Positions 6,294 through 25,428 of a DNA stretch of 64,000 nt are shown piece by piece. The DNA is from Providencia lanzhouensis. Lineage in GTDB: Bacteria > Pseudomonadota > Gammaproteobacteria > Enterobacterales > Enterobacteriaceae. The notes under the pieces were generated by a model, which worked only from the letters and a program-made list of their open reading frames with translations, made no database searches and was not told the origin of the DNA. Location of the stretch: contig NZ_CP174123.1 in the NCBI RefSeq assembly GCF_050469745.1, forward strand, positions 1 to 64,000. The letters are read 5' to 3'. How positions within the stretch are numbered: the stretch's first letter is position 1; each line of letters starts with the position of its first letter. Both the position numbers and the translations under genes were made by a program.

Positions 6294-9281
6294 ATGAACA
6301 AAATAACTCCTGCTGTATCGTTCAGTTTATTTGCTCTATTTAACACCCAGATTACCTTTGCAAACTCAGATTATATCGATGCCAGTAAATTCATCATTGA
6401 TCAGCGAAATCAGCGATTTGACGAACTAAAAAACCAAATCATCCCGCCGTACCCAGCCCCGCAGTCTCAAGCGGCGCAATGGGATAAAGACGTTAGCCAG
6501 CAAGCAACGCAATTAACAGGAAAGCGCAAAAAGAACGCTGAAAAAGATAAACAAAGCACACCAGAATATCTTTTTAACATTTACCTAGAATACGTATTTA
6601 ATAAAAAAGGGTTTAATTATAATGATTTTAAACAAATTAAAGCCTATAACCGTTTAAATAATTTATTCCATTTAGCCACCTTTGCAGATGACCCAATTCA
6701 AAACCGAGCTCGCTCAATGGATTTTATTCTCAAAGACTATTATTTACGTGGTCGCCCAAATCAAGTTCTCGATGATAAAGGCGAATATCTCCTAAACTAT
6801 GTCGATATTACAGGCTCTTCTTACCCAAGCGGACATACTTGGAATGGATTTAAACAAGCGGCTGTATTTGCCACAATTTTTCCAGAAAAAGGAGCTCAAT
6901 TTTTTGATAGAGCCATCGGCTACGGGGAAAGCCGTGTGATTGTCGGCGCACATTTCCCAACCGATACCATTGCCTCGCGCGCCGCCAATTATTATCTTCT
7001 CGCCCATTTACTGAAAGAGGATAAAACCGCCAATGCACTGATTAGCCAAGCCAAAGAAGTACGCCAAGAACTGAACACTCAATGCACCATCAATGAAAAA
7101 AAATGCAAACCACCAATAGGCTCACTTCCCTCTTTTAATGAAAACCTAGGTTATTACGCTAAGCAAAGTGAGCAGCCATCTCAGGCACTTCGCGTTGATC
7201 AAGTCCCTGCTGACGCCGCGTATTTGCTACGCTCTCGCTTTGCCTATCTTAATAAATCTCAATGGCAGCAAATTATTGCAGGCACCGCCTATCCCACTAA
7301 CTCTTTAGCGGGCTGGGAAGCTAAACAAAATCAACCCGAAAGCCACTGGGGGCTGATTAACTTACCGAAAGCCTATAAAGGGCCTACGCATTTCGCTGAA
7401 GATTGGGTCGTCAATCAACGGGTAACTCAAGACGACGTTGCAAACGTCGGCATTACCGATATTTGGAGTAATAACATCGATGGCAAAGGGCGGTTAATCA
7501 AACAAGGGGAAGGCTCATTAACCTTAGCTGGAATTAACCATTTTGCAGGGCTTGAAATACAGCAAGGCCGTGTGGTTTTAGTACAAGAAAACCACTTAAC
7601 AGGCCCCGTCAATGTCAAGGGTGGAAAGCTTGAGGTCAAAGACATCCTACATGCGCCAGTCAACGTCACCAATGGCACATTACAGCTCACTCACAGCATT
7701 AAAAATACAGTGACATTAAACCAAGGAGCCCAATTTATAGCTTCTGGCTTGGTTGATGACTTAGTGGTTAATAGCGGTGCTATCTTAACCCCTGGAGATA
7801 ATCTTAAAGACCCAACACGGCGTATGACGGTGAATAATACTGCTACCTTCCAACCCGGCAGTGCATTCCATGTGAGTCTTCAAACAACACACACACAGGA
7901 ATTTGATGCCCTACATGCTGGCGGTACTGTGACTATTAACGGCGGTAAGGTCAAAGTGTTCTTCGCTGAAGAATCACCGCCATTCAATGAACGTATACCA
8001 AATGAAGATGAAATTCAGGGGCGATTTCGAACCGAATACAACATTATTCGCGCCCCCAATATCCAAGGGAAATTTGATAGCATCGAACCTAACTACCTGT
8101 TTATTGGTACTACATTGAATTATGGTACTGATCCTCGCTCCCCCTCGATGAAACTGGTTACACTCAATGTCGGTCGTAGTGAGCTGGCTTTTGATTCATT
8201 TGCAAAAACGCCAAACCAAACCGCCATCGCTCACGTCCTTGAAGATCTTCCATTGAATAACACCCTGTATAAACGCTTAATTCTCAGCAAAACCACAGCA
8301 GGGGTTTACGACCTTCTTCACACTCTATCCCCACAAATTCATATCGATACCCTAGCTAGCCAATTGAATAACCATCGCCAATATCACGGTACGCTGCTGC
8401 AACAAACTCGCGTATCGGAAAACATCGTCAAAGAGCGTGGAGATAACCGTGGCAATGTGTGGGTAAATATTCCCTACCATTGGGACAGAACCCAAAGCGA
8501 TGGAAATGCTTCCGGCTTTACAAACAGCAATTATGGCGTGTTCTTAGGGACTGATAAGCATTTCTTCAATGATGACGTTATCTTTGGAATGAGCACCGGT
8601 TTTACCAAAAATTCCGTCTCTGGCGGAGTTGGTCATAGCCATAGTAACAACTATTATTTAGCCGCTTACGGTTCCCTGCAATTGGCACCAATCACCTTAC
8701 GCGCAGGGCTTGGACACACATGGCACACCATCAAGACCGATAGAACAGTCACTTCATCCATTTATTCCGATCACAATACCGCCGACTACAAAGGCAAAAC
8801 CAACCACCTGTTTATAGAAGCGACTTATCCGTGGAAATCGGCATTCATCAACGCCGAACCGTTTGCAAACTTTGCCTTTACCAATGCCGAAAGCCATGGA
8901 TTTAAAGAAAAAGGGGAAAAAACCTCGCTGGTGACAGGTCGCCAATCCCTCGATGCCACGACCACAACGCTGGGATTACGTTTAGATAACCAATGGAAAG
9001 TGGGCAATACATCCTCAATCGATGTACACGGGGAATTCGGCTGGCAGCATCAATATGATAAGCGGGAGCGTGAAATGGCTTTCCGATTCGCCCACCGAGA
9101 CCAGCTTGCACCACCGCTAAACTATCGCGGGATTAATGCGCCGAAAGATGGCATGGCTATCAAACTGGGCTCCAGCCTTCAGCTGACAGACAATTTCAAA
9201 CTGTCCATGGATTACAGCCAATTTACTGCTAAGGGATATTTAGAAAATAATCTTGATGCCAAATTGTTAGTGTCGTTTTAA
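6294..9281 (+). CDS. Autotransporter with N-terminal class A acid phosphatase (PAP2) passenger domain
   Basis: 995 aa with a signal peptide (MNKITPAVSFSLFALFNTQITFA|NS). All three class-A NSAP motifs are intact: KDYYLRGRP (KX6RP), PSGHT (PSGH) and SRVIVGAHFPTD (SRX5HX3D). A beta-helix-like repeat region (GGKLEVKD..., NGTLQLTH...) follows, then a C-terminal beta-barrel ending ...KLLVSF. The upstream intergenic region is very AT-rich. Confidence 0.85.
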   Translation: MNKITPAVSFSLFALFNTQITFANSDYIDASKFIIDQRNQRFDELKNQIIPPYPAPQSQAAQWDKDVSQQATQLTGKRKKNAEKDKQSTPEYLFNIYLEYVFNKKGFNYNDFKQIKAYNRLNNLFHLATFADDPIQNRARSMDFILKDYYLRGRPNQVLDDKGEYLLNYVDITGSSYPSGHTWNGFKQAAVFATIFPEKGAQFFDRAIGYGESRVIVGAHFPTDTIASRAANYYLLAHLLKEDKTANALISQAKEVRQELNTQCTINEKKCKPPIGSLPSFNENLGYYAKQSEQPSQALRVDQVPADAAYLLRSRFAYLNKSQWQQIIAGTAYPTNSLAGWEAKQNQPESHWGLINLPKAYKGPTHFAEDWVVNQRVTQDDVANVGITDIWSNNIDGKGRLIKQGEGSLTLAGINHFAGLEIQQGRVVLVQENHLTGPVNVKGGKLEVKDILHAPVNVTNGTLQLTHSIKNTVTLNQGAQFIASGLVDDLVVNSGAILTPGDNLKDPTRRMTVNNTATFQPGSAFHVSLQTTHTQEFDALHAGGTVTINGGKVKVFFAEESPPFNERIPNEDEIQGRFRTEYNIIRAPNIQGKFDSIEPNYLFIGTTLNYGTDPRSPSMKLVTLNVGRSELAFDSFAKTPNQTAIAHVLEDLPLNNTLYKRLILSKTTAGVYDLLHTLSPQIHIDTLASQLNNHRQYHGTLLQQTRVSENIVKERGDNRGNVWVNIPYHWDRTQSDGNASGFTNSNYGVFLGTDKHFFNDDVIFGMSTGFTKNSVSGGVGHSHSNNYYLAAYGSLQLAPITLRAGLGHTWHTIKTDRTVTSSIYSDHNTADYKGKTNHLFIEATYPWKSAFINAEPFANFAFTNAESHGFKEKGEKTSLVTGRQSLDATTTTLGLRLDNQWKVGNTSSIDVHGEFGWQHQYDKREREMAFRFAHRDQLAPPLNYRGINAPKDGMAIKLGSSLQLTDNFKLSMDYSQFTAKGYLENNLDAKLLVSF

Positions 9282-11995: not shown

Positions 11996-12953
11996 GCAAC
12001 TGCATCGATTAGACTTAAATTTACTGGTTATTCTGCAATATCTGGTGGAAGAGCGCAGTGTTAGCCTCGCAGCTAAACGCCTTGCAATCACCCCATCATC
12101 GGTCAGTAAGTCGTTGTCTAAACTGCGCCAATGGTTTGATGACCCTCTATTTATCCGCAGCCCACAAGGGCTGCTTCCTACCCCACTCATGCTACGCATT
12201 GAAAAATCACTGCCTGAGTTTTTAAATCTCTCACACTATATTGCTGAAATTCGTGATACCGAGAAACCACGAGGCATGACTTTCCGCTTAATGATGGAAG
12301 CACCGTTAAACTTAATCATGCTCCATGATTTATCCCTGAATATCCTCAATCAATATCCAGAATCCGAGGTCATTGTACGAGATTGGGATTATAACTCGTT
12401 GGCAGCACTGATTGCGGGGGATGCCGATATTGGGTTAGTCGGTCGTGAAAGTTTTCATTTATCTAGAGAGTCGATAAGCCAACTACCCGATATTCTAAAT
12501 TTCGAAGTGTTATTCACCGATAAACCTCTGGCGTTTATCCGCAGTGACCACCCCATTTTGCAAGAAGAATGGACGTTGGCAAATTACTTGAAATATCCCC
12601 ATATCAGCACTGAATTTGGCAACCGTATTCCGTGGGCGCTCGATGATTTACTGGAAACCATGGGGTTACATCGCCAAATCCATTTATCCTTTTCGACCTT
12701 TGAACAATCCCTCTTAATGGCTTCTCGCCCCGACCATAACCTTATTACAAGCTCCCCGGGCTATTGCCAACATTATGTTAATGATTTTAACCTTGATTTA
12801 GTCTGCCTTCCTCTTCCTGTTGATGACATTCTCTACCAGCAGCTCGAAATCCCTTTTTTGATGCTGTGGCACAAACGTAATTCCTATAACTCAAAAACCT
12901 TATGGTTAAGAGAGCAGATCAAAAACAGTACGCTTGAGTTTGTAACAATATAA
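11988..12953 (+). CDS. yidZ: LysR-family transcriptional regulator (YidZ-like)
   Basis: 321 aa with an N-terminal LysR HTH (LDLNLLVILQYLVEERSVSLAAKRLAITPSSVSKSLSKLR). It overlaps the mdtL stop by 8 nt, the same pairing as E. coli mdtL-yidZ. Confidence 0.8.
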   Translation: MNKQLHRLDLNLLVILQYLVEERSVSLAAKRLAITPSSVSKSLSKLRQWFDDPLFIRSPQGLLPTPLMLRIEKSLPEFLNLSHYIAEIRDTEKPRGMTFRLMMEAPLNLIMLHDLSLNILNQYPESEVIVRDWDYNSLAALIAGDADIGLVGRESFHLSRESISQLPDILNFEVLFTDKPLAFIRSDHPILQEEWTLANYLKYPHISTEFGNRIPWALDDLLETMGLHRQIHLSFSTFEQSLLMASRPDHNLITSSPGYCQHYVNDFNLDLVCLPLPVDDILYQQLEIPFLMLWHKRNSYNSKTLWLREQIKNSTLEFVTI

Positions 12954-14276: not shown

Positions 14277-14346
14277 TTTTCCGCACTCATTAATACCCGT
14301 ACTTAATGTCCGCAAACTGCTCTTTCCGCACATTATTCCGCAATCG

Positions 14347-14382
14347 CATCTCTACTCTTTCGACTTATCGAGAGTAGAGATG
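14347..14382. other. Perfect 12-bp-stem hairpin in the nagK–yqiJ intergenic region, next to four spaced TCCGCA repeats (14284..14346)
   Basis: Stems catctctactct / agagtagagatg with a 12-nt loop and no flanking U-run, so it is not a canonical terminator. The repeats are ttccgcactc, gtccgcaaac, ttccgcacat and ttccgcaatc. Confidence 0.4.
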
Positions 14383-14705
14383 ACCAATACCTCAAAATCA
14401 CCAAAATATAATTGAGAATAGTTATCATCTTTGTTATTTTTAATTAAATTAGCTAATAATCAACAAGTTAAATCTTTTTTCTTTTTCAGATTAACTACAG
14501 AAAATTAACCATAGAAATCAGCGAGATAATCTAGAAACTAGACTTAGACTAGTCCTATGTTGTTAACGCGAAAAGAGCTTATGATTAACGTGGTTTTGCT
14601 CATTTTTAGATAAATTCGCGATAAAAACACAGTTAAAGGCCATACACGTAACAGACAGATACCCGCTAAAGTCACATTCAGCCACTTAACTAAAGAGAAA
14701 AATAA

Positions 14706-15344
14706 ATGAATTTGTTTTTAGAAAATTGCTTGGCTTTCCCAACCATTATCTTTAGCGGTTTACTGATTATTGTCCTGTTTTACTGGCTTTGTGCCGCTTT
14801 TGGTCTGTTAGATATTGATTTATTTAATATCGATACCGAATTGGATGCTGACGGCATCGATCTCACTGGCTTTGCTGGCTGGCTGACAAAACTTGGTTTA
14901 GCCGGAATTCCCGTCACCATTATCTTGACGCTATTCACCCTCTTCGGCTGGCTGATTAGCTACTTTGCTGCGCATTTATTCCTACGCTTTATTGATATGA
15001 CCTTGCTGCGTTACGCCGTTGGAGTCACGTCGCTAGTGATCACCGCCTTTATTTCCCTGCACTTAACCGCCATTTGCCTAAAACCCATCCGTAGCCGACT
15101 GGTTAATATTAATAAACCCAAAACGGTTCATCAGCTAATGGGAAAATTGGCAACCGTGCGCTCAGGGACTGTCACAGAACAAAATGGGGAAGCCACCTTA
15201 GAAGATGGCGGTGCGGGGCTGATTTTGCAGGTTAGAGCACCTAGCGCCGAAAATATTAAACGCGGGGATCGCGTCGTTATCATCAGTTATGACCCTCAAT
15301 CCCACAGTTACCAAGTTGTCACCGAGAACGAATTCAGGCAGTAA
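14706..15344 (+). CDS. yqiJ: NfeD-family membrane protein (YqiJ-like; N-terminal TM region plus C-terminal OB-fold)
   Basis: 212 aa with an N-terminal multi-TM segment and a soluble C-terminal beta-rich domain (…ATVRSGTVTEQNGEATLEDGGAGLILQVRAPSAENIKRGDRVVIISYDP…). It sits directly upstream of the flotillin gene, as in E. coli yqiJK. Confidence 0.75.
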   Translation: MNLFLENCLAFPTIIFSGLLIIVLFYWLCAAFGLLDIDLFNIDTELDADGIDLTGFAGWLTKLGLAGIPVTIILTLFTLFGWLISYFAAHLFLRFIDMTLLRYAVGVTSLVITAFISLHLTAICLKPIRSRLVNINKPKTVHQLMGKLATVRSGTVTEQNGEATLEDGGAGLILQVRAPSAENIKRGDRVVIISYDPQSHSYQVVTENEFRQ

Positions 15345-15418
15345 ACACAAAAAATAAACTACCTACTTTGCTAATTAATAAAGAATGACGACATCGTCAG
15401 AACCCATGGAGAAAAAAT

Positions 15419-17620
15419 ATGGATTTGGCTGAATACATGCCTTTTTTAACGGTTGTTGGGGGAGTGATCATCATCATTCTTGGGTTCTTTGGTTTATTTA
15501 AAGCCTTCTACATCAAAGTCCCTCAAGGTACCGCTCTGATTGTCAACGACATGTCGTCACAACCAAAAGTGCATTTCACGGGTGCGTTAGTGTATCCCGT
15601 TATCTACAAGAAAGAGTTTATGCGCATTTCGCTGCTGACGCTGGAAGTGGATCGCCGTGGTAAAGACGGCTTAATTTGCCAAGATAATTTACGTGCAGAT
15701 ATCACTGTTGCCTTCTATCTGCGTGTTAATGAAACCACCGAAGACGTCTTAAAAGTAGCAAAAGCCATCGGTGTTGAGCGCGCCTCTGACCATCAAGCCG
15801 TCAGCGCCCTATTCAGCGCTAAATTCTCTGAAGCCCTGAAAACGGTTGGTAAGCAATTAGAATTAGCCAAACTGTTTGAAGACCGTCAAAGCTTCCGTGA
15901 CCGTATTGTTGATGTGATTGGTAAAGACCTTAATGGTTACGCGCTAGAAGACGTAGCAATCGACTATTTAGAACAAACGCCGAAATCTGCCCTCGATCCG
16001 AATAATATTTTCGACTCCGAAGGTATTCGCAAAATCACTGAAATTACCGCTATCCACAATATCGAAACTAACCAAAAAGAGCGCGACCAAGAGTTAGCTA
16101 TCAAAAAGAAAAACGTGGAAACCCGCGAAGCGAGCTTAGCATTAGAGCGCCAACAAGCCGACGCTGAAGCCCGTCAAAAACGTGAAATTGATAATATCCG
16201 TGCACGAGAACAAGCTGAAACCCTACGCGTTCAAGAAGAAGAGCGCCTCAAGTCAGAGCAAGCGCGTATTCAAACTCAGCAAGAAATTGAAATTCGTGAA
16301 GAAAACCGCATGCGTGAAGTGGAAGTGGCTCAACAGAACCGCACCCGCGCCGTGGCTATCGAAGAAGAGCGTGTCAACCGTGCTCGCGAGCTAGAAATTG
16401 TCGCCCGTGAACGTGAAGTTGAGCTGCAACGTATTGAAAAAGAAAAAGCGCTAGAAGAAGAACGTAAAAATATCTCTAACGTGATCCGCGAACGTGTTGC
16501 CGTCGAAAAAACCGTCGCGCAGGAAGAGGAACGTATCAAGGAAGTCCGCGAAATTTCAGAAGCTGAGCGTATGAAGCAAGTCACCGTGATCAACGCCCAA
16601 GCGGAAGCTGAAGAAGCCTTAGTCCGCCAGGTGAAAAAAGCCGAAGCCGATGAAGCAAGTGCCAAGCACCGTGCAGAAGAAATCAGTACTATGGCACAAG
16701 CAGAACTGGAAGCTTCCGCCAAACAAGCTGAAGCCAAAAAACGCTTAGCGGAAGGGATTGAAGCAGAACATGCAGCATTAGGCTTAGCAGAAGCCCGTGT
16801 TCGCCAAGCCACTGCCGAAGCTGAAGAGAAAGAAGGTCTGGTTCAAGCCAATATCACCGCGGAAAAACTGTTAGCCGAAGCTCGTGGTCTGAAAGAAAAA
16901 GGCTTAACCGAAGCGCAAGTGATGGAAGCTAAAGCGAACGCCGAACGCCAGCAAGGTTTTGCCGAAGCGAAAATTCTGGAAGAAAAATTGGCAGCGCAGG
17001 CTCGTGGTGAAGAACAACAAGCCAACGCGAAAGAAAAACTGGGCTTGGCAGATGCAAAAGTCTTGGAAGAAAAACTGGCAGCCCAAGCTCGCGGTGAAGG
17101 TCAATTAGGGGCAGCGCAAGCCGAAGTGATTCGCCAGCGTCTGAAAGCGGAAGCTGACGGTCTGACTGATAAATTCCAATCTATGGATCACCTCAGTGAT
17201 ACGGCTCGTTCACATGAAGAGTTCCGTATGCGCCTTGAGAAAGAGTTCGAGCAATCCATGGCATCCATTGAAGCGAATAAAGAAATTGCTCGCGAGCAAG
17301 CGGATGTCCTGGCTGCGGCACTGAGCAAAACCAACATCGAAATTGTGGGCGGTGATGGCGACTTCTTTAACACCTTCTCCAAAGCGCTGAGCTTGGGTAA
17401 AGCCGTTGATGGGTTTATGGATAAAAGTAGCTTTGCCAAAGATAACCTTGAAAAGTTAGTCAATCGAGTCACAGAAGAGAAGAAAATTGATATCGCGTCC
17501 TTACTGCAACACCCTGAAGTCAAAGATTTAATCAATGGTTTTATGGCTGCAAAAAGCGCACCACAAACAGCGAAAAACATCGTGAACAAACCCGTGTCTT
17601 ACGATGATAACCAAAGCTAA
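15419..17620 (+). CDS. yqiK: Flotillin-like SPFH/band-7 protein (YqiK-like) with an unusually long coiled coil
   Basis: 733 aa with an N-terminal TM segment and SPFH domain (residues ~30-200). A ~450-residue E/A/R/Q/K-rich coiled coil follows and contains a 29-aa tandem duplication. E. coli YqiK is 553 aa. Confidence 0.85.
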   Translation: MDLAEYMPFLTVVGGVIIIILGFFGLFKAFYIKVPQGTALIVNDMSSQPKVHFTGALVYPVIYKKEFMRISLLTLEVDRRGKDGLICQDNLRADITVAFYLRVNETTEDVLKVAKAIGVERASDHQAVSALFSAKFSEALKTVGKQLELAKLFEDRQSFRDRIVDVIGKDLNGYALEDVAIDYLEQTPKSALDPNNIFDSEGIRKITEITAIHNIETNQKERDQELAIKKKNVETREASLALERQQADAEARQKREIDNIRAREQAETLRVQEEERLKSEQARIQTQQEIEIREENRMREVEVAQQNRTRAVAIEEERVNRARELEIVAREREVELQRIEKEKALEEERKNISNVIRERVAVEKTVAQEEERIKEVREISEAERMKQVTVINAQAEAEEALVRQVKKAEADEASAKHRAEEISTMAQAELEASAKQAEAKKRLAEGIEAEHAALGLAEARVRQATAEAEEKEGLVQANITAEKLLAEARGLKEKGLTEAQVMEAKANAERQQGFAEAKILEEKLAAQARGEEQQANAKEKLGLADAKVLEEKLAAQARGEGQLGAAQAEVIRQRLKAEADGLTDKFQSMDHLSDTARSHEEFRMRLEKEFEQSMASIEANKEIAREQADVLAAALSKTNIEIVGGDGDFFNTFSKALSLGKAVDGFMDKSSFAKDNLEKLVNRVTEEKKIDIASLLQHPEVKDLINGFMAAKSAPQTAKNIVNKPVSYDDNQS
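16967..17100 (+). repeat. 87-bp (29-codon) in-frame tandem duplication inside the flotillin coiled coil
   Basis: gcgaaaattctggaagaaaaattggcagcgcaggctcgtggtgaag (16967..17012) is matched by gcaaaagtcttggaagaaaaactggcagcccaagctcgcggtgaag (17054..17099), an 87-nt offset. Protein repeat: AKILEEKLAAQARGEEQ... / AKVLEEKLAAQARGEGQ... Confidence 0.7.
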
Positions 17621-17663
17621 TTTATCAATATTCAGGCTTTTCAAGTAAGTTTTATACCTCATC

Positions 17664-17696
17664 CCGCCAAGTTGCAGCACATAGGCAACTTGGCGG
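17664..17696 (+). terminator. Hairpin (attenuator/partial terminator) between the flotillin gene and the giant ORF
   Basis: 12-bp perfect stem ccgccaagttgc / gcaacttggcgg with loop agcacatag, followed by tttatgagcgtatcttttttt. Confidence 0.5.
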
Positions 17697-17740
17697 TTTA
17701 TGAGCGTATCTTTTTTTAAGACCAAGGAAATTCGTTAAAC

Positions 17741-20536
17741 ATGTCAGAAACCCAAGATGTGAATCGCGAACAGGAAATTCTCGACAGTGCCGTCGCGGAA
17801 GGTGGTGCGTACGAAATATTACGCAAGCGCTTAACCGAACAAGGGCAGCAACTTCACCAAAAAGCAGCTCAACTCAACGACAGCCGGTTGACTGAATTTG
17901 GTCAAAGCCAGATGGACATTATCGGGCGTATCCGTATTCGTACCGAAAATAACTGCCAAGCAAGGGACATTGTCCGTGTCGGTGACTGGCTGCTATTTGG
18001 CTATAACGTTTTTCTGGGTCTGAAAAAAGAAACTCACATTGAAGATGTTTTTTCCTTATATCAACTCACTGAAAATGAAGGTGATTTTGATGTAATCTCT
18101 GTCCCTTACGAAGAGACATTCCTCAATGATACGCGCTTTGTTCAGGATTTTACTGAGCTATATACCTATTACAAAAACACGCAATTACTGCAATTGGTCG
18201 AGCGTGATGGCAAGCTGTTAGCCAGCTTCCAAATTGGTGATCGGTTAACCGACGTGCGTGTTTTCCGCTGGTCAATTTCCAGCGATAAATCCCGCATCGA
18301 ATACATCGATAACCGGGGTGAACGTGATATCGCCCTACCCCCCACCAATGATTTCGAATGGGTACGTACTACGCGGGAAAATACCGTTAATGGACGCTAT
18401 CCTCACATTAATATTCTCGATACCGTCTTTGTGGAAACCATCGGCGGCGACCTAACCATCAAATGTGAAAATAATACCGAAGATGGGTTGGGCATATACC
18501 GCGAAGCGGTACTCGATAAAAACCAATCCCTCGATGACGCCCAAATTGAATATGCTCAGACTGGCAGCCTAATTTTACTCAAAATCTTGCCATACCGCGA
18601 AGAGAGCTGGCGCTATCTGGTTTACAACATTCTGAATCAAACCGTTCACCGTATTGATGCCATAGGGCAAGCGTGCGTGCAGTTGCCGGAAGATCACGGA
18701 ATTATCTTCCCAGGGGGTTACTACCTGCAAAACGGGGAGTACAAAACCTTCGAGCAACCAATGGATGGCATGCGTTTTCGTCGTCTGCGCCGCTCACCCA
18801 ACGGGGAAGATGTGCTGTATGTGTTTTATTCCCCGAACCAAGGTCGTATCGCCCTTTTCAATTACAATTTAATTGAACGTAAACTTGCCGTACCATTAAT
18901 CGGTCATGGTTATGCCATGCTCGAAGATGGCAAAATGGTGCTGTTCGAAGGGGAAGGTGACGAAGCCACTCGCGTTCACCCTATGCAGGTGTGGCAAACC
19001 CCATTCTATTCTGACGAATTTGCCGATAAGCAGCCGCCACGGGGTGGGTTTCTTGGGCGTATCGGTAATGCCGATTTAGTCCGCGGGATCTCCGAAATTC
19101 TCCATGTCGCCAAAGAGATTGAAGGCAACCAAGTTTCCGTTTCCCGCTATGAACAGCTCAGCCAGCAACCTAAAAACTTGCTGGATATTTTCTATTGGTT
19201 TAATGACGAACAATGCTTAGGTATTGGCAAACTCTTAAAAGAGATCGCTCAAACCAGTGAGTTGGTACTCGACGAATACGAGAAAGTCGAAAGCATCCGC
19301 CAGCAATCCGTCAAATCAATGAATGAGGCGGTCACTCGCCAACGCTCCTTACTGTCCCTCACATTGCCTGAAGGATGGACGGATATTCAACAATTTGTAG
19401 ATGGGCTAAACGCCTTAAATGCCCAACAAGGGCATCTGATTTCATTGCGAGAATTCCGCTATATGGATCTCACAAAACTCAGTGAGATGGAAAATGAAAT
19501 CACCGAAGCACAGCAACGCGTTTCCCAAGGCACTGCGCAATTTCTTGCCAGCAACAAAGCTCTGCAACCGTTTAAAACTCAGCTCGCGACCTTTGAAGAG
19601 TTAATTGAAAAAGCACAAACCAGCGCGCAGTTAGATGTCCCAATGAATGACATGGAAAAAATGTCAGCGGATTTGGACATGCTCTCTAATTTAATGGCTT
19701 CATTGAGTTTTGATGATGTCACCTTACAGACCCATATCATCGATGCCATTTCGCACATTTATGCCCAGTTAAACCAGTCCCGCGCCCGTTTGCAGCAAAA
19801 ACGTAAATCTCAAACTAGCATTGAGAGCGTGGCGCAATTTGGGGCGCAGTTCCGCCTATTTAGCCAAGGTATCACCAACGCATTATCCCTCGCGACTGAC
19901 CCAGAACGTTGTGATGATCAGTTATCCCGATTGCTGGTTCAATTAGAAGAGCTAGAAAGTCAGTTTAGCCATCACGATGAATTTCTTGATGATATTCTGG
20001 CAAAACGCGAAGAATTACTGGAAACGTTTGAATCCCATAAACAAATCCTGATTGATGACCGCCAGCGCCGTTCGCAGAATTTATTAACGGCCGCCGACCG
20101 CTTATTAGAAAGCCTTCAACGCCGTACTGTACGCTTGCAAAACCAAGATGAACTGAATGCGTTTTTTGCTACCGACCCGCTCGCACAAAAAACCCGTGAA
20201 ATCATCGAGAAACTACGAGAAATCAACGATAACGTCAAAGCTGACGATATCGATGCCAGACTCAAAGCCTCTCGTGACCAAGCCATTCGCATTTTGCGGG
20301 ATAAAACCGATATCTTTGAAGATGGCGGCAACATTATTAAGCTGGGTCGCCACCGTTTCAGTGTTAACACCCAAGAGCTTGACCTGACTATCTTGCCAAA
20401 AGATAACCAACTGTGGGTGTACCTCACCGGAACGGATTTCCAAGAACCCATTGAGAACGCCGAACTTACACAGTTGCAACCTTATTGGACAGCCAACCTT
20501 GAATCTGAATCTGATACCGTTTATCGCGCTGAATAG
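17741..20536 (+). CDS. Large coiled-coil protein, N-terminal part (931 aa), same frame as the next ORF
   Basis: No recognisable catalytic motif. It ends at a TAG (20534..20536) that lies in the same reading frame as the downstream 698-aa ORF. Confidence 0.6.
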   Translation: MSETQDVNREQEILDSAVAEGGAYEILRKRLTEQGQQLHQKAAQLNDSRLTEFGQSQMDIIGRIRIRTENNCQARDIVRVGDWLLFGYNVFLGLKKETHIEDVFSLYQLTENEGDFDVISVPYEETFLNDTRFVQDFTELYTYYKNTQLLQLVERDGKLLASFQIGDRLTDVRVFRWSISSDKSRIEYIDNRGERDIALPPTNDFEWVRTTRENTVNGRYPHINILDTVFVETIGGDLTIKCENNTEDGLGIYREAVLDKNQSLDDAQIEYAQTGSLILLKILPYREESWRYLVYNILNQTVHRIDAIGQACVQLPEDHGIIFPGGYYLQNGEYKTFEQPMDGMRFRRLRRSPNGEDVLYVFYSPNQGRIALFNYNLIERKLAVPLIGHGYAMLEDGKMVLFEGEGDEATRVHPMQVWQTPFYSDEFADKQPPRGGFLGRIGNADLVRGISEILHVAKEIEGNQVSVSRYEQLSQQPKNLLDIFYWFNDEQCLGIGKLLKEIAQTSELVLDEYEKVESIRQQSVKSMNEAVTRQRSLLSLTLPEGWTDIQQFVDGLNALNAQQGHLISLREFRYMDLTKLSEMENEITEAQQRVSQGTAQFLASNKALQPFKTQLATFEELIEKAQTSAQLDVPMNDMEKMSADLDMLSNLMASLSFDDVTLQTHIIDAISHIYAQLNQSRARLQQKRKSQTSIESVAQFGAQFRLFSQGITNALSLATDPERCDDQLSRLLVQLEELESQFSHHDEFLDDILAKREELLETFESHKQILIDDRQRRSQNLLTAADRLLESLQRRTVRLQNQDELNAFFATDPLAQKTREIIEKLREINDNVKADDIDARLKASRDQAIRILRDKTDIFEDGGNIIKLGRHRFSVNTQELDLTILPKDNQLWVYLTGTDFQEPIENAELTQLQPYWTANLESESDTVYRAE

Positions 20537-20581
20537 CTCGCGTACTCCATCATCTATGCCGCAGCAAAACGCCAAGATGGT

Positions 20582-22678
20582 TTGGATTACGACACCCTAA
20601 AAAGTGCGCTGTCTGCCCCTGAAAAAATCGACAAACTGGTGCGTGATTTTGCGGCTCCACGCTACAAAGAAGGCTACGAAAAAGGGATCCACGACCACGA
20701 CGCTATCGCGATATTGAAAAAGCTGATCCCGATTGGTGAAAGCGCGGATTTACTGCGCTTCAACCCAACAGCTCGCGCCATTGCGGCGATTTTTTGGCAT
20801 CACATTCAAAGCAACGAATACCCTGCCCAATGGCCAGAACGAGCCAGAACCGCGATGAATATCCGCCAGCTATTCAATAACGATGATGCCCTTTTAGATC
20901 TTCAAGCGGAGATCGAGGCAGATGTCAGCTTATTCCTGCAAGATAATCCAATTAATTGCCAAGCTCATGAGCAAGCTCAAGCTGCGGAATACCTCAGTTT
21001 TGCGTTAGCCAGAACGCCGATTGAATTGGTGTACAGCAAATATGCGCGGGACTTAGTGGCAGCACTACAAACGCGCTTAGAAGAAGCCCATATGTGGCTG
21101 GATTTCAATCATTCACAGCAAAACCTTGGCACTCGCTATGCTCAGCGCTGGGCGCTGTTGCAAAATTGGCTGCAAGGGCTGTGTTCGATTGACGAATTTG
21201 CACATTTACGTCCATACATTCCAGGCGCCATCGCCATTATTATCTTAGATAAAATGGCATCGGCACGTTATAGCGAAGCCGATTTATACTTTAAAGTTAC
21301 TGGATTACTGGGGGATCACCCGACAATCCACAACCAAACTCTCTCGTTAAGTTTGGATGACTTTTTCAGTCGAATGCGCGAACAGCGCAAGCAATTTATT
21401 CCAGCCTTCCGTAAATACCAAGCACTGCGTCAGCGCATTGTGAGTGAAGAGCGCAGCCGCCTAAAACTTCATGAGTTCAAAGCTAAGCCACTGAGCTCAT
21501 TTGTGCGTAACAAGCTGATCAATGACGTCTATTTACCGATTATCGGTGACAACATGGCGAAGCAAATTGGCGCTCTAGGCGAAAACAAGCGTACCGATTT
21601 AATGGGCTTGTTACTGATGATCTCCCCGCCAGGTTACGGTAAAACGACCCTGATGGAGTACGCGGCTGACCGCCTTGGTTTGATCTTTATGAAGATTAAT
21701 GGTCCTGCGCTTGGGCATGATGTGCTGTCCCTCGACCCAGAGCAAGCCCCGAATGCTACCGCCAGACAAGAGCTGGAAAAACTAAACCTCGCCCTCGAAA
21801 TGGGCAACAACGTGATGCTGTATGTGGATGATATTCAACATACTCACCCTGAATTTTTACAGAAATTTATCTCCCTGTGTGATGGAACCCGTCGCATCGA
21901 AGGGGTATGGAAAGACAAAACCAAAACCTACGATATGCGCGGTAAAAAATTCTGTGTTGTCATGGCGGGTAACCCGTATACCGAATCTGGCGAAGTGTTC
22001 CGTATCCCTGATATGCTCGCCAACCGTGCGGATATTTATAACCTGGGTGAAGTGCTCGGTGGGATGGATGATGCCTTTGCATTGAGCTACATAGAAAACA
22101 GCCTGACCTCAAACCCAGTATTAGCACCGTTGGCGCTGCGCGATTTAAATGATTTGTATTTGCTGGTGGATAAAGCCATGGGCAAATCAGTCTCCACTAA
22201 TGCACTCAGCTACCCGTATTCCGATGCGGAAGTAAATGAAATTACTGCGGTTATTTCCCGATTACTCAGCCTGCGCGATGTGGTTCTGAAGGTAAACCAG
22301 CAATATATTGCCAGTGCCGCACAGTCCGATAAATATCGAACCGAGCCGGCATTCCGCCTGCAAGGCAGCTACCGAAATATGAACAAGCTCAGCGAGAAAG
22401 TCTCTTCCGTTATGAATGATGATGAATTAGAGAGATTGCTGGATGACCATTATCTTGGGGAAGCGCAATTATTAACGACAGGTGCTGAAGAGAACTTATT
22501 GAAGCTGGCAGAATTACGCGGAAGGCTGAATGAGAAAGATGCAGCACGCTGGCAGCAAATCAAGAAAGATTTCTTGCGTAACAAAGCATTAGGTGGTGAT
22601 AATGCCGATGTGGGCGACCGCGTTGTCACTCAGCTCGCCCAACTGGTTGAAAGCGTACAATCTCTCGGACATCGATAA
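20582..22678 (+). CDS. MoxR-like AAA+ ATPase, C-terminal part of the giant ORF (ORF-track start is TTG)
   Basis: 698 aa. Walker A LMISPPGYGKTTLMEY, Walker B VMLYVDDIQ, and a MoxR/AAA_5-type sensor region VVMAGNPYTESGEVFRIPDMLANRADIY. It shares a frame with 17741..20536 (both start positions ≡ 2 mod 3), separated only by TAG plus 15 sense codons. There is no SD before the TTG. Confidence 0.6.
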   Translation: MDYDTLKSALSAPEKIDKLVRDFAAPRYKEGYEKGIHDHDAIAILKKLIPIGESADLLRFNPTARAIAAIFWHHIQSNEYPAQWPERARTAMNIRQLFNNDDALLDLQAEIEADVSLFLQDNPINCQAHEQAQAAEYLSFALARTPIELVYSKYARDLVAALQTRLEEAHMWLDFNHSQQNLGTRYAQRWALLQNWLQGLCSIDEFAHLRPYIPGAIAIIILDKMASARYSEADLYFKVTGLLGDHPTIHNQTLSLSLDDFFSRMREQRKQFIPAFRKYQALRQRIVSEERSRLKLHEFKAKPLSSFVRNKLINDVYLPIIGDNMAKQIGALGENKRTDLMGLLLMISPPGYGKTTLMEYAADRLGLIFMKINGPALGHDVLSLDPEQAPNATARQELEKLNLALEMGNNVMLYVDDIQHTHPEFLQKFISLCDGTRRIEGVWKDKTKTYDMRGKKFCVVMAGNPYTESGEVFRIPDMLANRADIYNLGEVLGGMDDAFALSYIENSLTSNPVLAPLALRDLNDLYLLVDKAMGKSVSTNALSYPYSDAEVNEITAVISRLLSLRDVVLKVNQQYIASAAQSDKYRTEPAFRLQGSYRNMNKLSEKVSSVMNDDELERLLDDHYLGEAQLLTTGAEENLLKLAELRGRLNEKDAARWQQIKKDFLRNKALGGDNADVGDRVVTQLAQLVESVQSLGHR

Positions 22679-23256
22679 TGCAAACTTGGCTAAGCCCGCG
22701 AATTAAATTACTGATTACCCTTGCGGGTTTGCTGATCGCTATTCAAATCGCCAATAGTTTAAGTGGCTACGCGCTTGTTGGGTTCGGCATCCAACCAAGA
22801 ACGCTGCACGGGCTGGTGGGGATTATCTTCGCCCCACTGATCCACGGTGATTGGGCACATCTTCTGAGTAATCTGCCGCCGTTACTGGTTTTAAGCGCCC
22901 TGCTGCTGCATGATTCCATTCGAAAATATGCTTATGCCAGCGCGTTTATTATTGTGGTTGGCGGCTTGATTGTCTGGCTAGTGGGCAGAAATGCGCTGCA
23001 CATTGGCGCTAGCGGCTGGATTTTTGGGCTTTGGGGCTTATTGATTGCCCAAGGTTTTTTCCGCCGCAAACTGTTAGATATCGTTATCGCCCTGTTAGTA
23101 CTGTTCTATTTTGGTGCGATGGCGAGCGGGTTATTGCCTGTTCACCAGCAAATATCGACAGAATCCCATATTGCCGGTGCTATCGCCGGAATTGCCTATG
23201 CATGGTTAGCCAATAAAAAATTAAAAGCGACGCCGCCGACTACCCTTTCAAAGTAA
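22678..23256 (+). CDS. Short rhomboid-family intramembrane serine protease
   Basis: 192 aa, about 6 TM. Catalytic Ser is in GASGWIFGLWG (the GxSG motif) and catalytic His in AHIAGAIAGIAYAW, the arrangement of GlpG. Its ATG overlaps the upstream stop (ATAATG). Confidence 0.8.
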   Translation: MQTWLSPRIKLLITLAGLLIAIQIANSLSGYALVGFGIQPRTLHGLVGIIFAPLIHGDWAHLLSNLPPLLVLSALLLHDSIRKYAYASAFIIVVGGLIVWLVGRNALHIGASGWIFGLWGLLIAQGFFRRKLLDIVIALLVLFYFGAMASGLLPVHQQISTESHIAGAIAGIAYAWLANKKLKATPPTTLSK

Positions 23257-23902
23257 CCCGATATACACAGCGCCCTGCGCCATCAAGCAGGTATTGCTCC
23301 CGTTCAACATTCACCTTTTCCCCTAATACTTCGCGAAATAGTGCCAATTCAGAACGGCAAAAGTTTTGGCACGCGGTTGCCGCCGCGCAGATAGGGCAAT
23401 GGTTTTCGATAAATAACCAGCTATCGCCTTCCTGCTCAACCTTCGCCATATAGCCCTCTTCGCTACGAACCTCAGCGAGTGCAGCTAAACATTGTTCTAA
23501 TGGCAGCCCTTGGCAGCGCCCCAAATATTTACTGCGACTTTCCACTTCTCGCTGTTCAATCAGTTTTTCTAGCCCCTCATCACCAAAAATGGTTTTCACT
23601 GAATCAATGAGCTGCAAAGCCAGCTGGGCATGGGTATCGGGAAAACGTTGATGTCCCAGTTCCGTTAATACCCAATTTTGCCGAGGACGCCCAGCGCCAG
23701 ATTGTGCGGTGCATTGAACACCTTCCACCAGCCCCAGTGACGTTAATTTATGGATATGCTGGCGTGCTGCTTCCCCCGTTAAACCCAGGTCATGGGCAAT
23801 CACTGCTGTGGAAACGGGTCCTTTGGTTTTGATGCAAAACAGCACCTTATCCACTGCTTGAGTGAGATTTAGATTATCAAAGTATTTACTTGCTTTATTC
23901 AT
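23240..23902 (-). CDS. Winged-helix (ArsR/MarR-like) transcriptional regulator with a Cys-rich C-terminal domain
   Basis: 220 aa. N-terminal wHTH (VSTAVIAHDLGLTGEAARQHIHKLTSLGLVE) and a C-terminal HCPICAAATACQNFC cluster. Transcribed divergently from the MFS gene at 23977. Confidence 0.65.
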   Translation of the reverse strand: MNKASKYFDNLNLTQAVDKVLFCIKTKGPVSTAVIAHDLGLTGEAARQHIHKLTSLGLVEGVQCTAQSGAGRPRQNWVLTELGHQRFPDTHAQLALQLIDSVKTIFGDEGLEKLIEQREVESRSKYLGRCQGLPLEQCLAALAEVRSEEGYMAKVEQEGDSWLFIENHCPICAAATACQNFCRSELALFREVLGEKVNVEREQYLLDGAGRCVYRVTLKG

Positions 23903-23976: not shown

Positions 23977-25428
23977 ATGAGCAACAAAACAGTCACCGAA
24001 TCCAATAAAAACGGCACCAAATCCAATGAAACCAGTACCGAATCTCAAGGAAAATGGGCTGATTTACTCAGCGGCACCAATGCGTTATTGACGATAGCCC
24101 TCACAGGTGGCGTCGCACTTCATGCTATCAATATTTATATTGTCACCACGATTTTACCGAGTGTCGTCAATGATATTGGCGGTCTTGAATATTATGCGTG
24201 GAACACCACGCTGTTTGTGGCAACCTCCATTATTGGTTCTGCATTATCCAGTAAAGTACTGGACAGCCTAGGACCTAAACTTGCCTATCTTAGCGCTCTG
24301 TTACTGTTTTCCTTGGGCGCCATTTGGTGTGCATCCTCACCGTCCATGCTCACCTTATTGGGTGGGCGCGCCTTGCAAGGGCTTGGCGGCGGAATGTTAT
24401 TCGCGCTTAGCTATGCGCTGATCCGTATTGTCTTCACGCCAAACTTGTGGTCTCGCGCCATGGGGGTGATATCCGGTATGTGGGGGATAGCTACGTTGTG
24501 TGGTCCTGCTATTGGCGGTATTTTTGCTCAAGGGGGTCATTGGCGCTGGGCTTTTTGGGCTTTATTGCCCGTGGCGGTTGTGCTGGCAGTAATTGTTATC
24601 AACCAATTGCCGGGGAAAAAATCTCAGCAATCGCAAACAACAAAAATTCCCATTTTTGCGATTTCACTGTTAGTTATTTCCGTACTTGCTATCTCAATTG
24701 GCAGTTTATCGGAAAGCTTGCTCAGCAATCTTATCGGATTATTTATTGGTATTGCCTTACTCATCACCATTGCGCTTATTGATGGTAAAAATGGAAAGCG
24801 TTTACTCCCCACAGGGGCTTACTCCCTAAAAACTCAGCTTGGGGTTATTTTCCTGACAATGGGTTTACTGGTGGGGGGAATGACCACCGAAATTTATGTG
24901 CCTTACTTCCTGCAAACCATTCACCAGTTTTCACCATTGATGGCAGGTTATTTAACTGCCGTGATGGCAGCGGGGTGGACGGTGGGTGCTTTACTCAGCG
25001 CTAATAAAACGGGTGCCATCGTTTTACGCATCCTTAAAGCGGGTCCCGTTATCATCCTGGTATCGCTGATAATTCTAGCGGTTCTAACCCCTAATCTGGA
25101 TTTGGTTAACTCCATTCCATTATTTATTCTTTACCTACTCGCCATGATGGGAGTTGGATTAGGAATTGGCATCTGCTGGCCTCATTTAGTTCTGCGAGTA
25201 TTTAATGCGGCACCTAAAGGGGAAGAAAACTTAGCATCCTCTTCAGTGATTACGATCCAATTGTATGCAACTGCCTTATCTGCGGCATTAGTGGGCGTGG
25301 TGGTCAATAATAGCGGATTGATTAATCCTGGTGGGTTAGTTGGTGCTCAACAAGCCTCTGTCTGGTTATTTACCCTGTTTGCTATTAGCCCATTCTTGGC
25401 TGCAGTTTTAATTCGCAAAGTTAAATAA
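23977..25428 (+). CDS. MFS transporter (14-TMS, DHA2-like) with a hydrophilic N-terminal extension
   Basis: 483 aa with multiple TM helices and Gly-rich MFS motifs. Forms a divergent regulator/efflux pair with 23240..23902. Confidence 0.8.
   Translation: MSNKTVTESNKNGTKSNETSTESQGKWADLLSGTNALLTIALTGGVALHAINIYIVTTILPSVVNDIGGLEYYAWNTTLFVATSIIGSALSSKVLDSLGPKLAYLSALLLFSLGAIWCASSPSMLTLLGGRALQGLGGGMLFALSYALIRIVFTPNLWSRAMGVISGMWGIATLCGPAIGGIFAQGGHWRWAFWALLPVAVVLAVIVINQLPGKKSQQSQTTKIPIFAISLLVISVLAISIGSLSESLLSNLIGLFIGIALLITIALIDGKNGKRLLPTGAYSLKTQLGVIFLTMGLLVGGMTTEIYVPYFLQTIHQFSPLMAGYLTAVMAAGWTVGALLSANKTGAIVLRILKAGPVIILVSLIILAVLTPNLDLVNSIPLFILYLLAMMGVGLGIGICWPHLVLRVFNAAPKGEENLASSSVITIQLYATALSAALVGVVVNNSGLINPGGLVGAQQASVWLFTLFAISPFLAAVLIRKVK

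Follow-up and report, generated by a model that had tools for sequence, protein, structure and literature searches.

What kind of system is encoded at positions 14706–23256 of a 64,000-nt stretch of Providencia lanzhouensis DNA (contig NZ_CP174123.1, assembly GCF_050469745.1; hereafter the window), where genes for a YqiJ-like membrane protein and a flotillin-like protein are followed on the same strand by coding sequence for a giant ATPase and by a gene for a small rhomboid protease? The locus is filled by five plus-strand open reading frames (ORFs) of 212, 733, 931, 698 and 192 aa, of which the third and fourth are parts of the ATPase gene. An initial annotation made from the DNA letters viewed the locus as the yqiJ-yqiK operon of Escherichia coli extended by further genes, and the positions and plus-strand orientation that it assigned to the four genes agree with the ORF list of the window. 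The analysis presented here leads to a different view of their identity. The core of the locus, comprising the YqiJ-like, flotillin-like and ATPase genes, is a known but barely studied kind of system, and the association of this core with a rhomboid appears to be new. The evidence leans toward the locus being the Providencia version of a conserved envelope-stress operon, in a short form with a dedicated rhomboid.

Results

The giant ATPase travels with a distinct flotillin lineage

Related loci were sought by scanning one genome per GTDB species, and the best 80 of at least 590 confirmed candidate stretches were analyzed. The sample spans Morganellaceae, Xenorhabdus, Gilliamella, Pseudomonas, Lysobacteraceae, Stenotrophomonas, Cellvibrio, Hahella and Longimicrobium, among others, and counts of conserved gene order refer to those of the 80 loci with enough contig sequence. 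In every such locus the three genes of the core have the same order and strand, and the ATPase gene is beside the flotillin-like gene in 80 of 80. This survey bears out the initial annotation in that the four genes are a real, conserved unit. Since the order of the trio is invariant and the ATPase is present in all 80 sampled loci, the earlier proposal of an extended E. coli yqiJK unit does not hold. Sequence comparisons indicate instead a separate flotillin lineage, paralogous to YqiK at 28% identity, that travels with a giant ATPase.

The first gene (14706..15344) specifies a putative 212-aa membrane protein of the YqiJ/YuaF type with a probable C-terminal OB-fold, resembling a short NfeD protein. 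It shares 23% identity with E. coli YqiJ (BLASTP E = 0.029) and scores 17.1 bits (E = 0.0063) with the Pfam YqiJ_N model, under the cutoff of 23. Alignment of the family profile with E. coli YqiJ by hhalign gave a probability of 91% (E = 1e-6), and an exact match in Providencia records is named DUF1449 or OB-fold-containing protein by NCBI. The protein thus appears to be a remote relative of YqiJ. The second gene (15419..17620) specifies a 733-aa flotillin-like protein with an N-terminal membrane anchor, an SPFH region and, as its third part, a long Glu/Ala-rich coiled coil. Its sequence is clearly homologous to that of E. coli YqiK (28% identity over 454 aa, BLASTP E = 2e-44; hhalign probability 99.9% over 391 columns), and an exact match in Providencia records bears the name "flotillin family protein." The lineage is missed by the Band_7 and Flot models and by profile searches of the PDB although it is 28% identical to YqiK, and domain-based SPFH surveys probably undercount it.

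In both E. coli and Providencia, the first gene of the pair appears to encode a membrane protein with an OB-fold and the second encodes an SPFH/coiled-coil protein with a membrane anchor, and the homology of the two pairs is detectable. However, at 23 and 28% identity, the first two genes of the locus are, by sequence, distant relatives and not orthologues of yqiJ and yqiK, and what comes after the pair in E. coli K-12 is sibD/ibsD rather than an ATPase gene.

The spacings between successive genes of the locus are 74 nt, 120 nt and −1 nt. The second of these spacers contains a GC-rich hairpin followed by a T-rich tract (17664..17696, plus strand). The hairpin had been noted in the initial annotation and does possess a perfect 12-bp stem. 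A 125-nt RNA from this flotillin/ATPase intergenic region folds at −32.8 kcal/mol (z = −4.9 against shuffled sequences), and a conserved ribosome-binding site, AAGGAAAT, is situated downstream of the hairpin ahead of the ATPase ATG. Most other Morganellaceae that were aligned have a hairpin and T-tract of unrelated sequence in the same position (spacers of loci L001, L002, L003, L022 and L040). Because the hairpin and T-tract are kept in position while their sequence changes between species, a conserved partial terminator is suggested, and the scaffold is probably made in excess of the ATPase. A simple terminator scan did not call the 17664–17696 hairpin, and sigma-70-like and terminator-like matches in the locus showed no excess over the shuffled expectation.

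The trio corresponds to a predicted operon and to Pseudomonas aeruginosa bacCDE

The combination of genes had not been recognized as a described system in the initial annotation, but the core trio has been reported before. An operon of the form CesT/Tir–PspA–YqiJ/YuaF–Band-7/flotillin–β-propeller/coiled-coil AAA+ was described by Ravi, Anantharaman, Aravind, Gennaro et al. (mSystems 2024; PMC11237479), who proposed a role in sub-membrane assembly and remodelling and noted that abbreviated operons without PspA are widely distributed. The trio in the window has the same order and domain architectures and represents the abbreviated form; in contrast to the full operon, it is without the pair formed by the CesT/Tir-like YjfI and PspA and without the PLD gene, and is accompanied by a rhomboid. 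The work of Ravi et al. was purely computational.

In P. aeruginosa, the bacABCDEF genes (PA3732–PA3727, "biofilm-associated cluster") are one transcript by reverse transcription PCR, including across the flotillin-ATPase junction (PMC10948618). A sigma-54 site was proposed for the operon, and the PspA-like BacB protein rises on osmotic shock (PMC10948618). Mutants in bacA and bacB (PA3731) lose biofilm formation, rhamnolipid and virulence, with loss of swarming in the bacB mutant; the published phenotypes concern these two genes and not the ATPase (PMC10948618). BacC, BacD and BacE are the counterparts of the YqiJ-like protein, the flotillin-like protein and the giant ATPase, respectively, in the same order. 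The N-terminal half of the window protein shares 68% identity with the ATPase of P. aeruginosa (P0013), and other Pseudomonas relatives are 63–65% identical over both halves. Unlike the window, P. aeruginosa possesses YjfI (BacA) and PspA (BacB) ahead of the trio and a PLD-like protein (BacF) behind it, and has no rhomboid. Moreover, whereas a sigma-54 promoter is proposed in P. aeruginosa, none like that proposed for bacA was found in positions 14277–14705 of the window.

A P. aeruginosa contig carries, in order, a partial ORF that by its position is a candidate PspA, ORFs for proteins of 213 and 688 aa, a 1,627-aa DUF3686 protein, a 230-aa protein with 71% identity to a PLDc_2 protein, and then YaeQ, RecJ and, where lasB would be expected, an M4 peptidase. 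This gene order presumably matches PA3731–PA3724 in the PAO1 numbering. From the order next to yaeQ-recJ-lasB and from the PLDc_2 identity, we infer that BacE is the DUF3686 protein and that BacF is PLD-like.

To identify the neighbors of the trio, ORFs on either side were clustered into families and analyzed with Pfam. A PspA_IM30 gene is directly upstream in 44 of 70 loci, usually preceded by a DUF2170/YjfI gene, and a gene for a 229-aa PLD-like protein lies downstream in many (29 loci with a match). TelA, a zinc-ribbon protein, an M90 peptidase with a SEC-C motif, an MscS-like channel and YaeQ occur near the trio in subsets of loci. Other Morganellaceae, like the window, are without the YjfI-PspA pair, and no homologues of PspA, YjfI or PLD were found in the entire 64-kb window. 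The membrane-stress role that had been suggested for the locus fits the neighbors PspA, YjfI, PLD and TelA.

A predicted β-propeller, a coiled coil and an AAA+ module in one protein

The giant ATPase gene (17741..22678, plus strand) comprises 1,645 codons. In the initial annotation no motif was recognized before the C-terminal ATPase; hidden Markov model searches of both parts of the gene fill this region. DUF3686 (PF12458) matches residues 38–485 with E = 5e-201 over model positions 2–448 of 448, DUF7902 (PF25472) matches with E = 3.5e-25, and AAA models match with E about 1e-6. By sequence, the protein belongs to a DUF3686 + DUF7902 + AAA+ family. A word-indexed search retrieved more than 2,000 homologues across many phyla, most of which are named "DNA repair ATPase." When 1.84 billion cluster representatives (50% identity) were searched exhaustively, 401 matched at E ≤ 1e-30, which are co-linear with the protein and, when full-length, span 1,600–2,036 aa. 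With ten homologues aligned, sequences from different phyla share about 50% identity, and the family is compact and strongly constrained. In Pseudomonas (loci L013–L021, L025 and L073) the C-terminus of the protein extends ~100 residues beyond that in Morganellaceae (~1,750 versus 1,645 aa); in these loci the ORF ends at about 15220–15275 of the fetched stretch and the rhomboid start overlaps the stop as ATGA.

An AlphaFold model of the N-terminal half, with a predicted local distance difference test score (pLDDT) of 84.6, contains a helix, a β-rich region at residues 59–420, ~430 residues of long helices (425–857) and a small β domain, with confidence dropping over the last dozen residues. 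Foldseek matched the β-rich region to generic β-propellers only (E about 1e-5), and a sequence search of the PDB with this half produced nothing useful. The DUF3686 region (17852..19195) is thus a predicted β-propeller, and is followed by a long helical or coiled-coil region (19196..20311) that includes DUF7902 (residues 606–690). The model of the C-terminal half (pLDDT 78) consists of a helical domain of ~300 residues and then a single AAA+ core (21584..22126), with Walker A at 21623–21649, Walker B at 21818–21838 and the sensor-1/Arg-finger region at 21965–22039. The motifs SPPGYGKTT, LYVDDIQ and AGNPYTESGEVFRIPDMLANRADIY highlighted in the initial annotation are all present. Pfam identified no peptidase, nuclease or DNA-binding domain in the protein, which agrees with its earlier description as a non-protease AAA+ partner.

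The earlier assignment of the AAA+ module to the MoxR/AAA_5 type is upheld by predicted fold and left undecided by sequence. Among solved structures, those of the MoxR ATPases NorQ and CbbQ are closest in fold. The Pfam AAA_5 model scores 27.3 bits (cutoff 22), AAA_22 and AAA score alike, and a sequence profile search of the PDB aligned over the Walker A region only, with p97/NVL best. The stretch from Walker A to β2 resembles classical AAA proteins. The MoxR label therefore is backed by the modeled fold, with weak sequence evidence. A further difference from NorQ, CbbQ and RavA is that about 1,250 residues precede the module in the same polypeptide. Throughout the family, Walker B takes the form hhhhDD, with an invariant Asp-Asp pair, rather than the usual hhhhDE, which may denote slow or regulated ATP hydrolysis.

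A nonsense codon interrupts the ATPase gene in this strain

The upstream 931-aa ORF (17741–20536) and downstream 698-aa ORF (20582–22678) were described in the initial annotation as two same-frame ORFs totaling ~1,645 residues. The shared frame and total length stand, but there is one gene and not two, and the annotation missed that this gene is broken in the strain. Read through from 17741 to 22678, the frame has a single internal stop, a TAG at 20534..20536 (codon 932), which occupies the position of a nearly invariant Tyr within the VYRAEYLA motif of the family consensus in the ten-homologue alignment. Codon 932 is TAC in five aligned conspecific loci, and the TAG differs from it by a single C-to-G change at 20536. 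The gene is an intact 1,645-aa ORF in all eight conspecific loci, which derive from other strains carrying an identical rhomboid, and is one ORF of 1,645–1,900 aa in 77 of the 79 relatives with a complete gene. Locus L167 differs from the window at 4 of 8,551 bases, the TAG site among them. Thus, the two ORFs are one gene cut by a strain-specific nonsense codon. The TAG is either a very recent mutation of this strain or a sequencing error, and the species state is an intact gene. Readthrough or recoding at the TAG was considered and rejected because the conspecific strains carry a plain TAC.

The chances are about even that the locus is partly dead in this strain, with the giant gene a recent pseudogene or, alternatively, with the TAG a sequencing error and the gene intact. 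Besides the comparison with the conspecific loci, this reading draws on a lookup of exact matches in a collection of 15 billion proteins, in which the 931-aa and 698-aa products have no match and the YqiJ-like, flotillin-like and rhomboid proteins of the window match records of P. alcalifaciens-group Providencia exactly. The earliest in-frame restart is a TTG at 20582 with no obvious ribosome-binding site. The TAG most likely would remove the AAA+ half and, given the coupling between the 3′ end of the long ORF and the start of the rhomboid gene, probably also would lower translation of the rhomboid; reduced output of both in this strain is a reasonable inference. Against this, both halves of the gene are otherwise intact, and the window derives from a single assembly in which a read error is possible. 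The position of the stop also is suggestive, as it falls in a linker predicted by AlphaFold to be flexible (pLDDT < 55 at residues 920–931). Two other breaks, in locus L001 and in Xenorhabdus szentirmaii, fall within ~30 codons of the TAG in this linker and hint that a two-piece protein is tolerated, although assembly errors in these two loci and in the window are possible.

These two are the only other disrupted copies among 81 loci: L001 has a 2-nt insertion (~8125–8160) and X. szentirmaii (L008) a 1-nt deletion (~12700–12811). All three breaks are in the low-confidence linker between the propeller/coiled-coil and AAA+ halves. By our own estimate, which assumes uniformly placed random breaks, such clustering has a chance probability of roughly 1e-3; the gene may tolerate being split here, the site may be a mutational hot spot, or the clustering may be coincidental.

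A minimal rhomboid is linked to the operon in a subset of species

The final gene of the locus (22678..23256, plus strand) encodes a 192-aa minimal rhomboid intramembrane serine protease (Pfam Rhomboid, PF01694; E = 2.9e-19). Residues H56, H61, N65, G110, S112, G113 and H164 are invariant among 29 family members and A111 is nearly so, with Ser112 and His164 encoded at 23011–23013 and 23167–23169, respectively. The conserved residues indicate that the rhomboid is catalytically competent. The GASG motif of the catalytic Ser that had been noted earlier is present; the catalytic His motif given as AHIAG reads SHIAG. A rhombosortase identity was rejected, as the NCBIfam model for that family scores 28.6 bits, far under the cutoff of 84.

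The rhomboid ATG shares one base with the TAA of the ATPase gene (CGATAATGC), and the overlap described in the initial annotation recurs beyond the window. Among 76 evaluable species loci, a rhomboid gene is directly downstream on the same strand in 27, within 30 nt in 25 and overlapping the ATPase stop in 17. The rhomboid-bearing taxa include Providencia, Moellerella, Leminorella, Limnobaculum, Xenorhabdus, many Pseudomonas, Cellvibrio and Hahella; P. aeruginosa, Gilliamella and Lysobacteraceae are without it. The converse test used metagenomic loci of the same rhomboid subfamily, of which 80 were fetched and the 60 with at least 1.5 kb of upstream sequence were evaluated. In 26 of these the rhomboid directly follows the ATPase gene, in 13 it follows a YjfI-PspA pair and in 21 it is elsewhere. 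The YjfI-PspA-linked rhomboids, where examined, lie in yjfIJKLMC-type operons. The link between the rhomboid and the operon therefore is statistical in both directions and is not obligate. Because 49 of 76 operons have no rhomboid and 21 of 60 subfamily members are elsewhere, the rhomboid is accessory rather than essential. Because it is found both after the ATPase gene and after YjfI-PspA, the same minimal rhomboid is placed in both classes of YjfJ-type PspA operon.

In seven loci (L095, L117, L122, L123, L152, L154 and L156) the rhomboid gene directly follows yjfI-pspA, at ~8001–8570 in most. By eye, most of these then carry a gene for a K+-channel-like protein of 345 aa and lookalikes of YjfK, YjfL, YjfM and YjfC. 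Such loci would be a second class of PspA operon with an unreported rhomboid. In five Stenotrophomonas and Lysobacter loci (L059, L061, L047, L054 and L081) the place of the rhomboid downstream of the ATPase is taken by a 255-aa coiled-coil protein, followed by TelA in four of the five. In L062, L057, L060 and L068 the downstream partner is an MtfA-like peptidase of the M90 family that also carries a SEC-C motif, an MscS-like channel or a zinc-ribbon protein of 180 aa.

The rhomboid could be only a neighbor with its own unrelated substrate, captured by chance or for shared expression. Its absence from the 49 species operons and from P. aeruginosa, and the 21 subfamily members in other contexts are what such a neighbor would produce. 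Among the latter settings are loci L083, L084, L087 and L088 (~6989–8579), in which nagK is directly followed by a rhomboid that is 54–57% identical to that of the window and the trio is absent. In the window nagK is upstream of the trio (Pfam scan). The synteny of these loci matches the window minus the trio, and the trio therefore was either inserted into or deleted from the spot. Furthermore, no feature of the flotillin N-terminal anchors separates operons with and without the rhomboid, and because the anchors look alike no substrate can be named. However, chance capture fits poorly with start/stop overlap in both Morganellaceae and Pseudomonas, with spacings of 3–28 nt in Cellvibrio, Hahella and others, and with insertion of the same subfamily into two different PspA-type operons. 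The pairwise divergence of the rhomboid also tracks that of the ATPase (rho = 0.76, 27 taxa), a correlation that shared species phylogeny alone would give. Overall, a mere neighbor is unlikely.

The rhomboid link is the new part of the system and apparently was not noted before. The rhomboid is not mentioned in the text and one supplement of Ravi et al. (PMC11237479), and a literature search for a bacterial rhomboid linked with flotillin and PspA returned only unrelated eukaryotic papers.

The locus has a stable chromosomal setting

Across Providencia the locus is maintained in conserved synteny between nagK and a gene for a SufR-like helix-turn-helix regulator. In the window the latter occupies 23240–23902 on the minus strand and converges on the rhomboid gene, with the 3′ ends overlapping by 17 nt (23240–23256). 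Beyond it lies a divergent gene for a DHA2-type MFS efflux protein (23977–25428), and both genes are syntenic in other Providencia.

This setting bears on the suggestion, raised as a possibility in the initial annotation, that the four genes are a membrane-acting anti-phage defense system. PspA was first found as a phage-shock protein, and the mixture of a large ATPase, a protease and membrane proteins resembles some abortive-infection systems. Yet none of the five products matched any PADLOC family at E ≤ 0.01, the flanks are housekeeping genes in conserved chromosomal synteny, and the base composition of the locus is like that of the flanks. The ATPase family, with its ~50% identity across phyla, also is unlike fast-evolving defense genes. 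A defense function is accordingly very improbable.

Discussion

The weakest of the explanations, that the giant protein is a DNA-repair ATPase, has in its favor the NCBI and Pfam naming and weak matches to RuvB that extend over the Walker A region only (NCBIfam E = 0.0016; hhalign over 43 columns; Foldseek E = 1.6e-5), but can be set aside as scarcely credible given that Pfam found no DNA-binding or nuclease domain, that every conserved neighbor is a membrane or envelope-stress protein and that a literature search tied no paper on the DUF3686 family to repair, such that the database name "DNA repair ATPase" almost certainly is misleading. This reading, phage defense and a rhomboid that is a mere neighbor are less well supported than an envelope-stress operon, whose function probably is membrane remodelling during envelope stress.

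In such an operon, the YqiJ-like and flotillin-like proteins would together make a large SPFH cage that sits against the inner membrane from the cytoplasmic side and encloses a patch of membrane. The scaffold would be made in excess over the ATPase through the intergenic hairpin. Cages of this type have been solved for other SPFH/NfeD pairs, according to structures cited in PMC13086221. The giant protein may dock on the cage through its predicted β-propeller and coiled coil, and its MoxR-like AAA+ ring may use ATP to assemble, remodel or dismantle the cage, or coiled-coil polymers such as PspA where these are present. As the ATPase accompanies the flotillin in 80 of 80 loci and PspA in 44 of 70, the flotillin cage is the likelier direct client. 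The rhomboid would cut transmembrane segments of proteins in the patch, or the anchors of the scaffold, for removal.

A number of observations weigh against this picture. In addition to the absence of the rhomboid from many operons, the nagK-rhomboid loci and the uniform flotillin anchors discussed above, the window flotillin-like protein has no match at E ≤ 0.01 to Pfam Band_7 (PF01145) or Flot (PF15975). Among 27 family members there is one weak Flot match (E = 0.022) and no Band_7 match, and sequence searches of the PDB with the protein alone or with its family profile found no SPFH structure. The basis for calling the protein a flotillin is its pairwise and profile comparison with YqiK. 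MoxR ATPases usually act together with a VWA-domain protein, and no VWA domain was found in the genes of the locus or in the nine conserved flank families scanned with Pfam. Comparison of the AAA+ module with E. coli RavA by hhalign was insignificant (probability 8%). The rate of ATP hydrolysis is uncertain because of the hhhhDD form of Walker B. Finally, PA3728 is mentioned only in passing in the searchable literature, in eight papers of which none is devoted to the gene, and the biochemical roles of the giant ATPase and the rhomboid rest on prediction.

A broader and more speculative proposal, to be regarded as doubtful at this stage, is that dedicated minimal rhomboids are an unrecognized working part of YjfJ-type PspA (ESCRT-III-like)/flotillin systems, and that the cage and the MoxR-like ATPase, together with the rhomboid, form a bacterial counterpart of the mitochondrial SPFH-rhomboid-AAA hub. 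Membrane anchors in the caged patch would be substrates of the rhomboid, and the resulting fragments would be extracted or recycled by the ATPase. The three clustered breaks in the ATPase gene would then reflect propeller/coiled-coil and ATPase halves that work as separate subunits. An SPFH scaffold with an ATPase is common to the locus, the mitochondrial SLP2-PARL-YME1L complex and HflK/C-FtsH, and a rhomboid also is part of the mitochondrial complex. In contrast to these assemblies, the giant ATPase has no peptidase (no M41), is not of the FtsH type and possesses a predicted β-propeller and a coiled coil of ~430 residues. The likeness to SLP2-PARL-YME1L is thus an analogy of parts and not homology of whole systems. 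If the hub proposal is true, the mitochondrial arrangement has a bacterial parallel.

For the envelope-stress operon itself, the practical relevance is modest but real, as mutation of the homologous P. aeruginosa operon leads to loss of biofilm and virulence traits. Both PspA polymers and SPFH/flotillin cages now are viewed as general membrane-maintenance devices, and according to a review there is no Vps4-like ATPase for PspA in bacteria (PMC7619361). Because it is strongly conserved beside one flotillin lineage in 80 of 80 sampled loci, the giant ATPase is an obvious candidate for the missing energy-dependent step in the handling of these cages and polymers.

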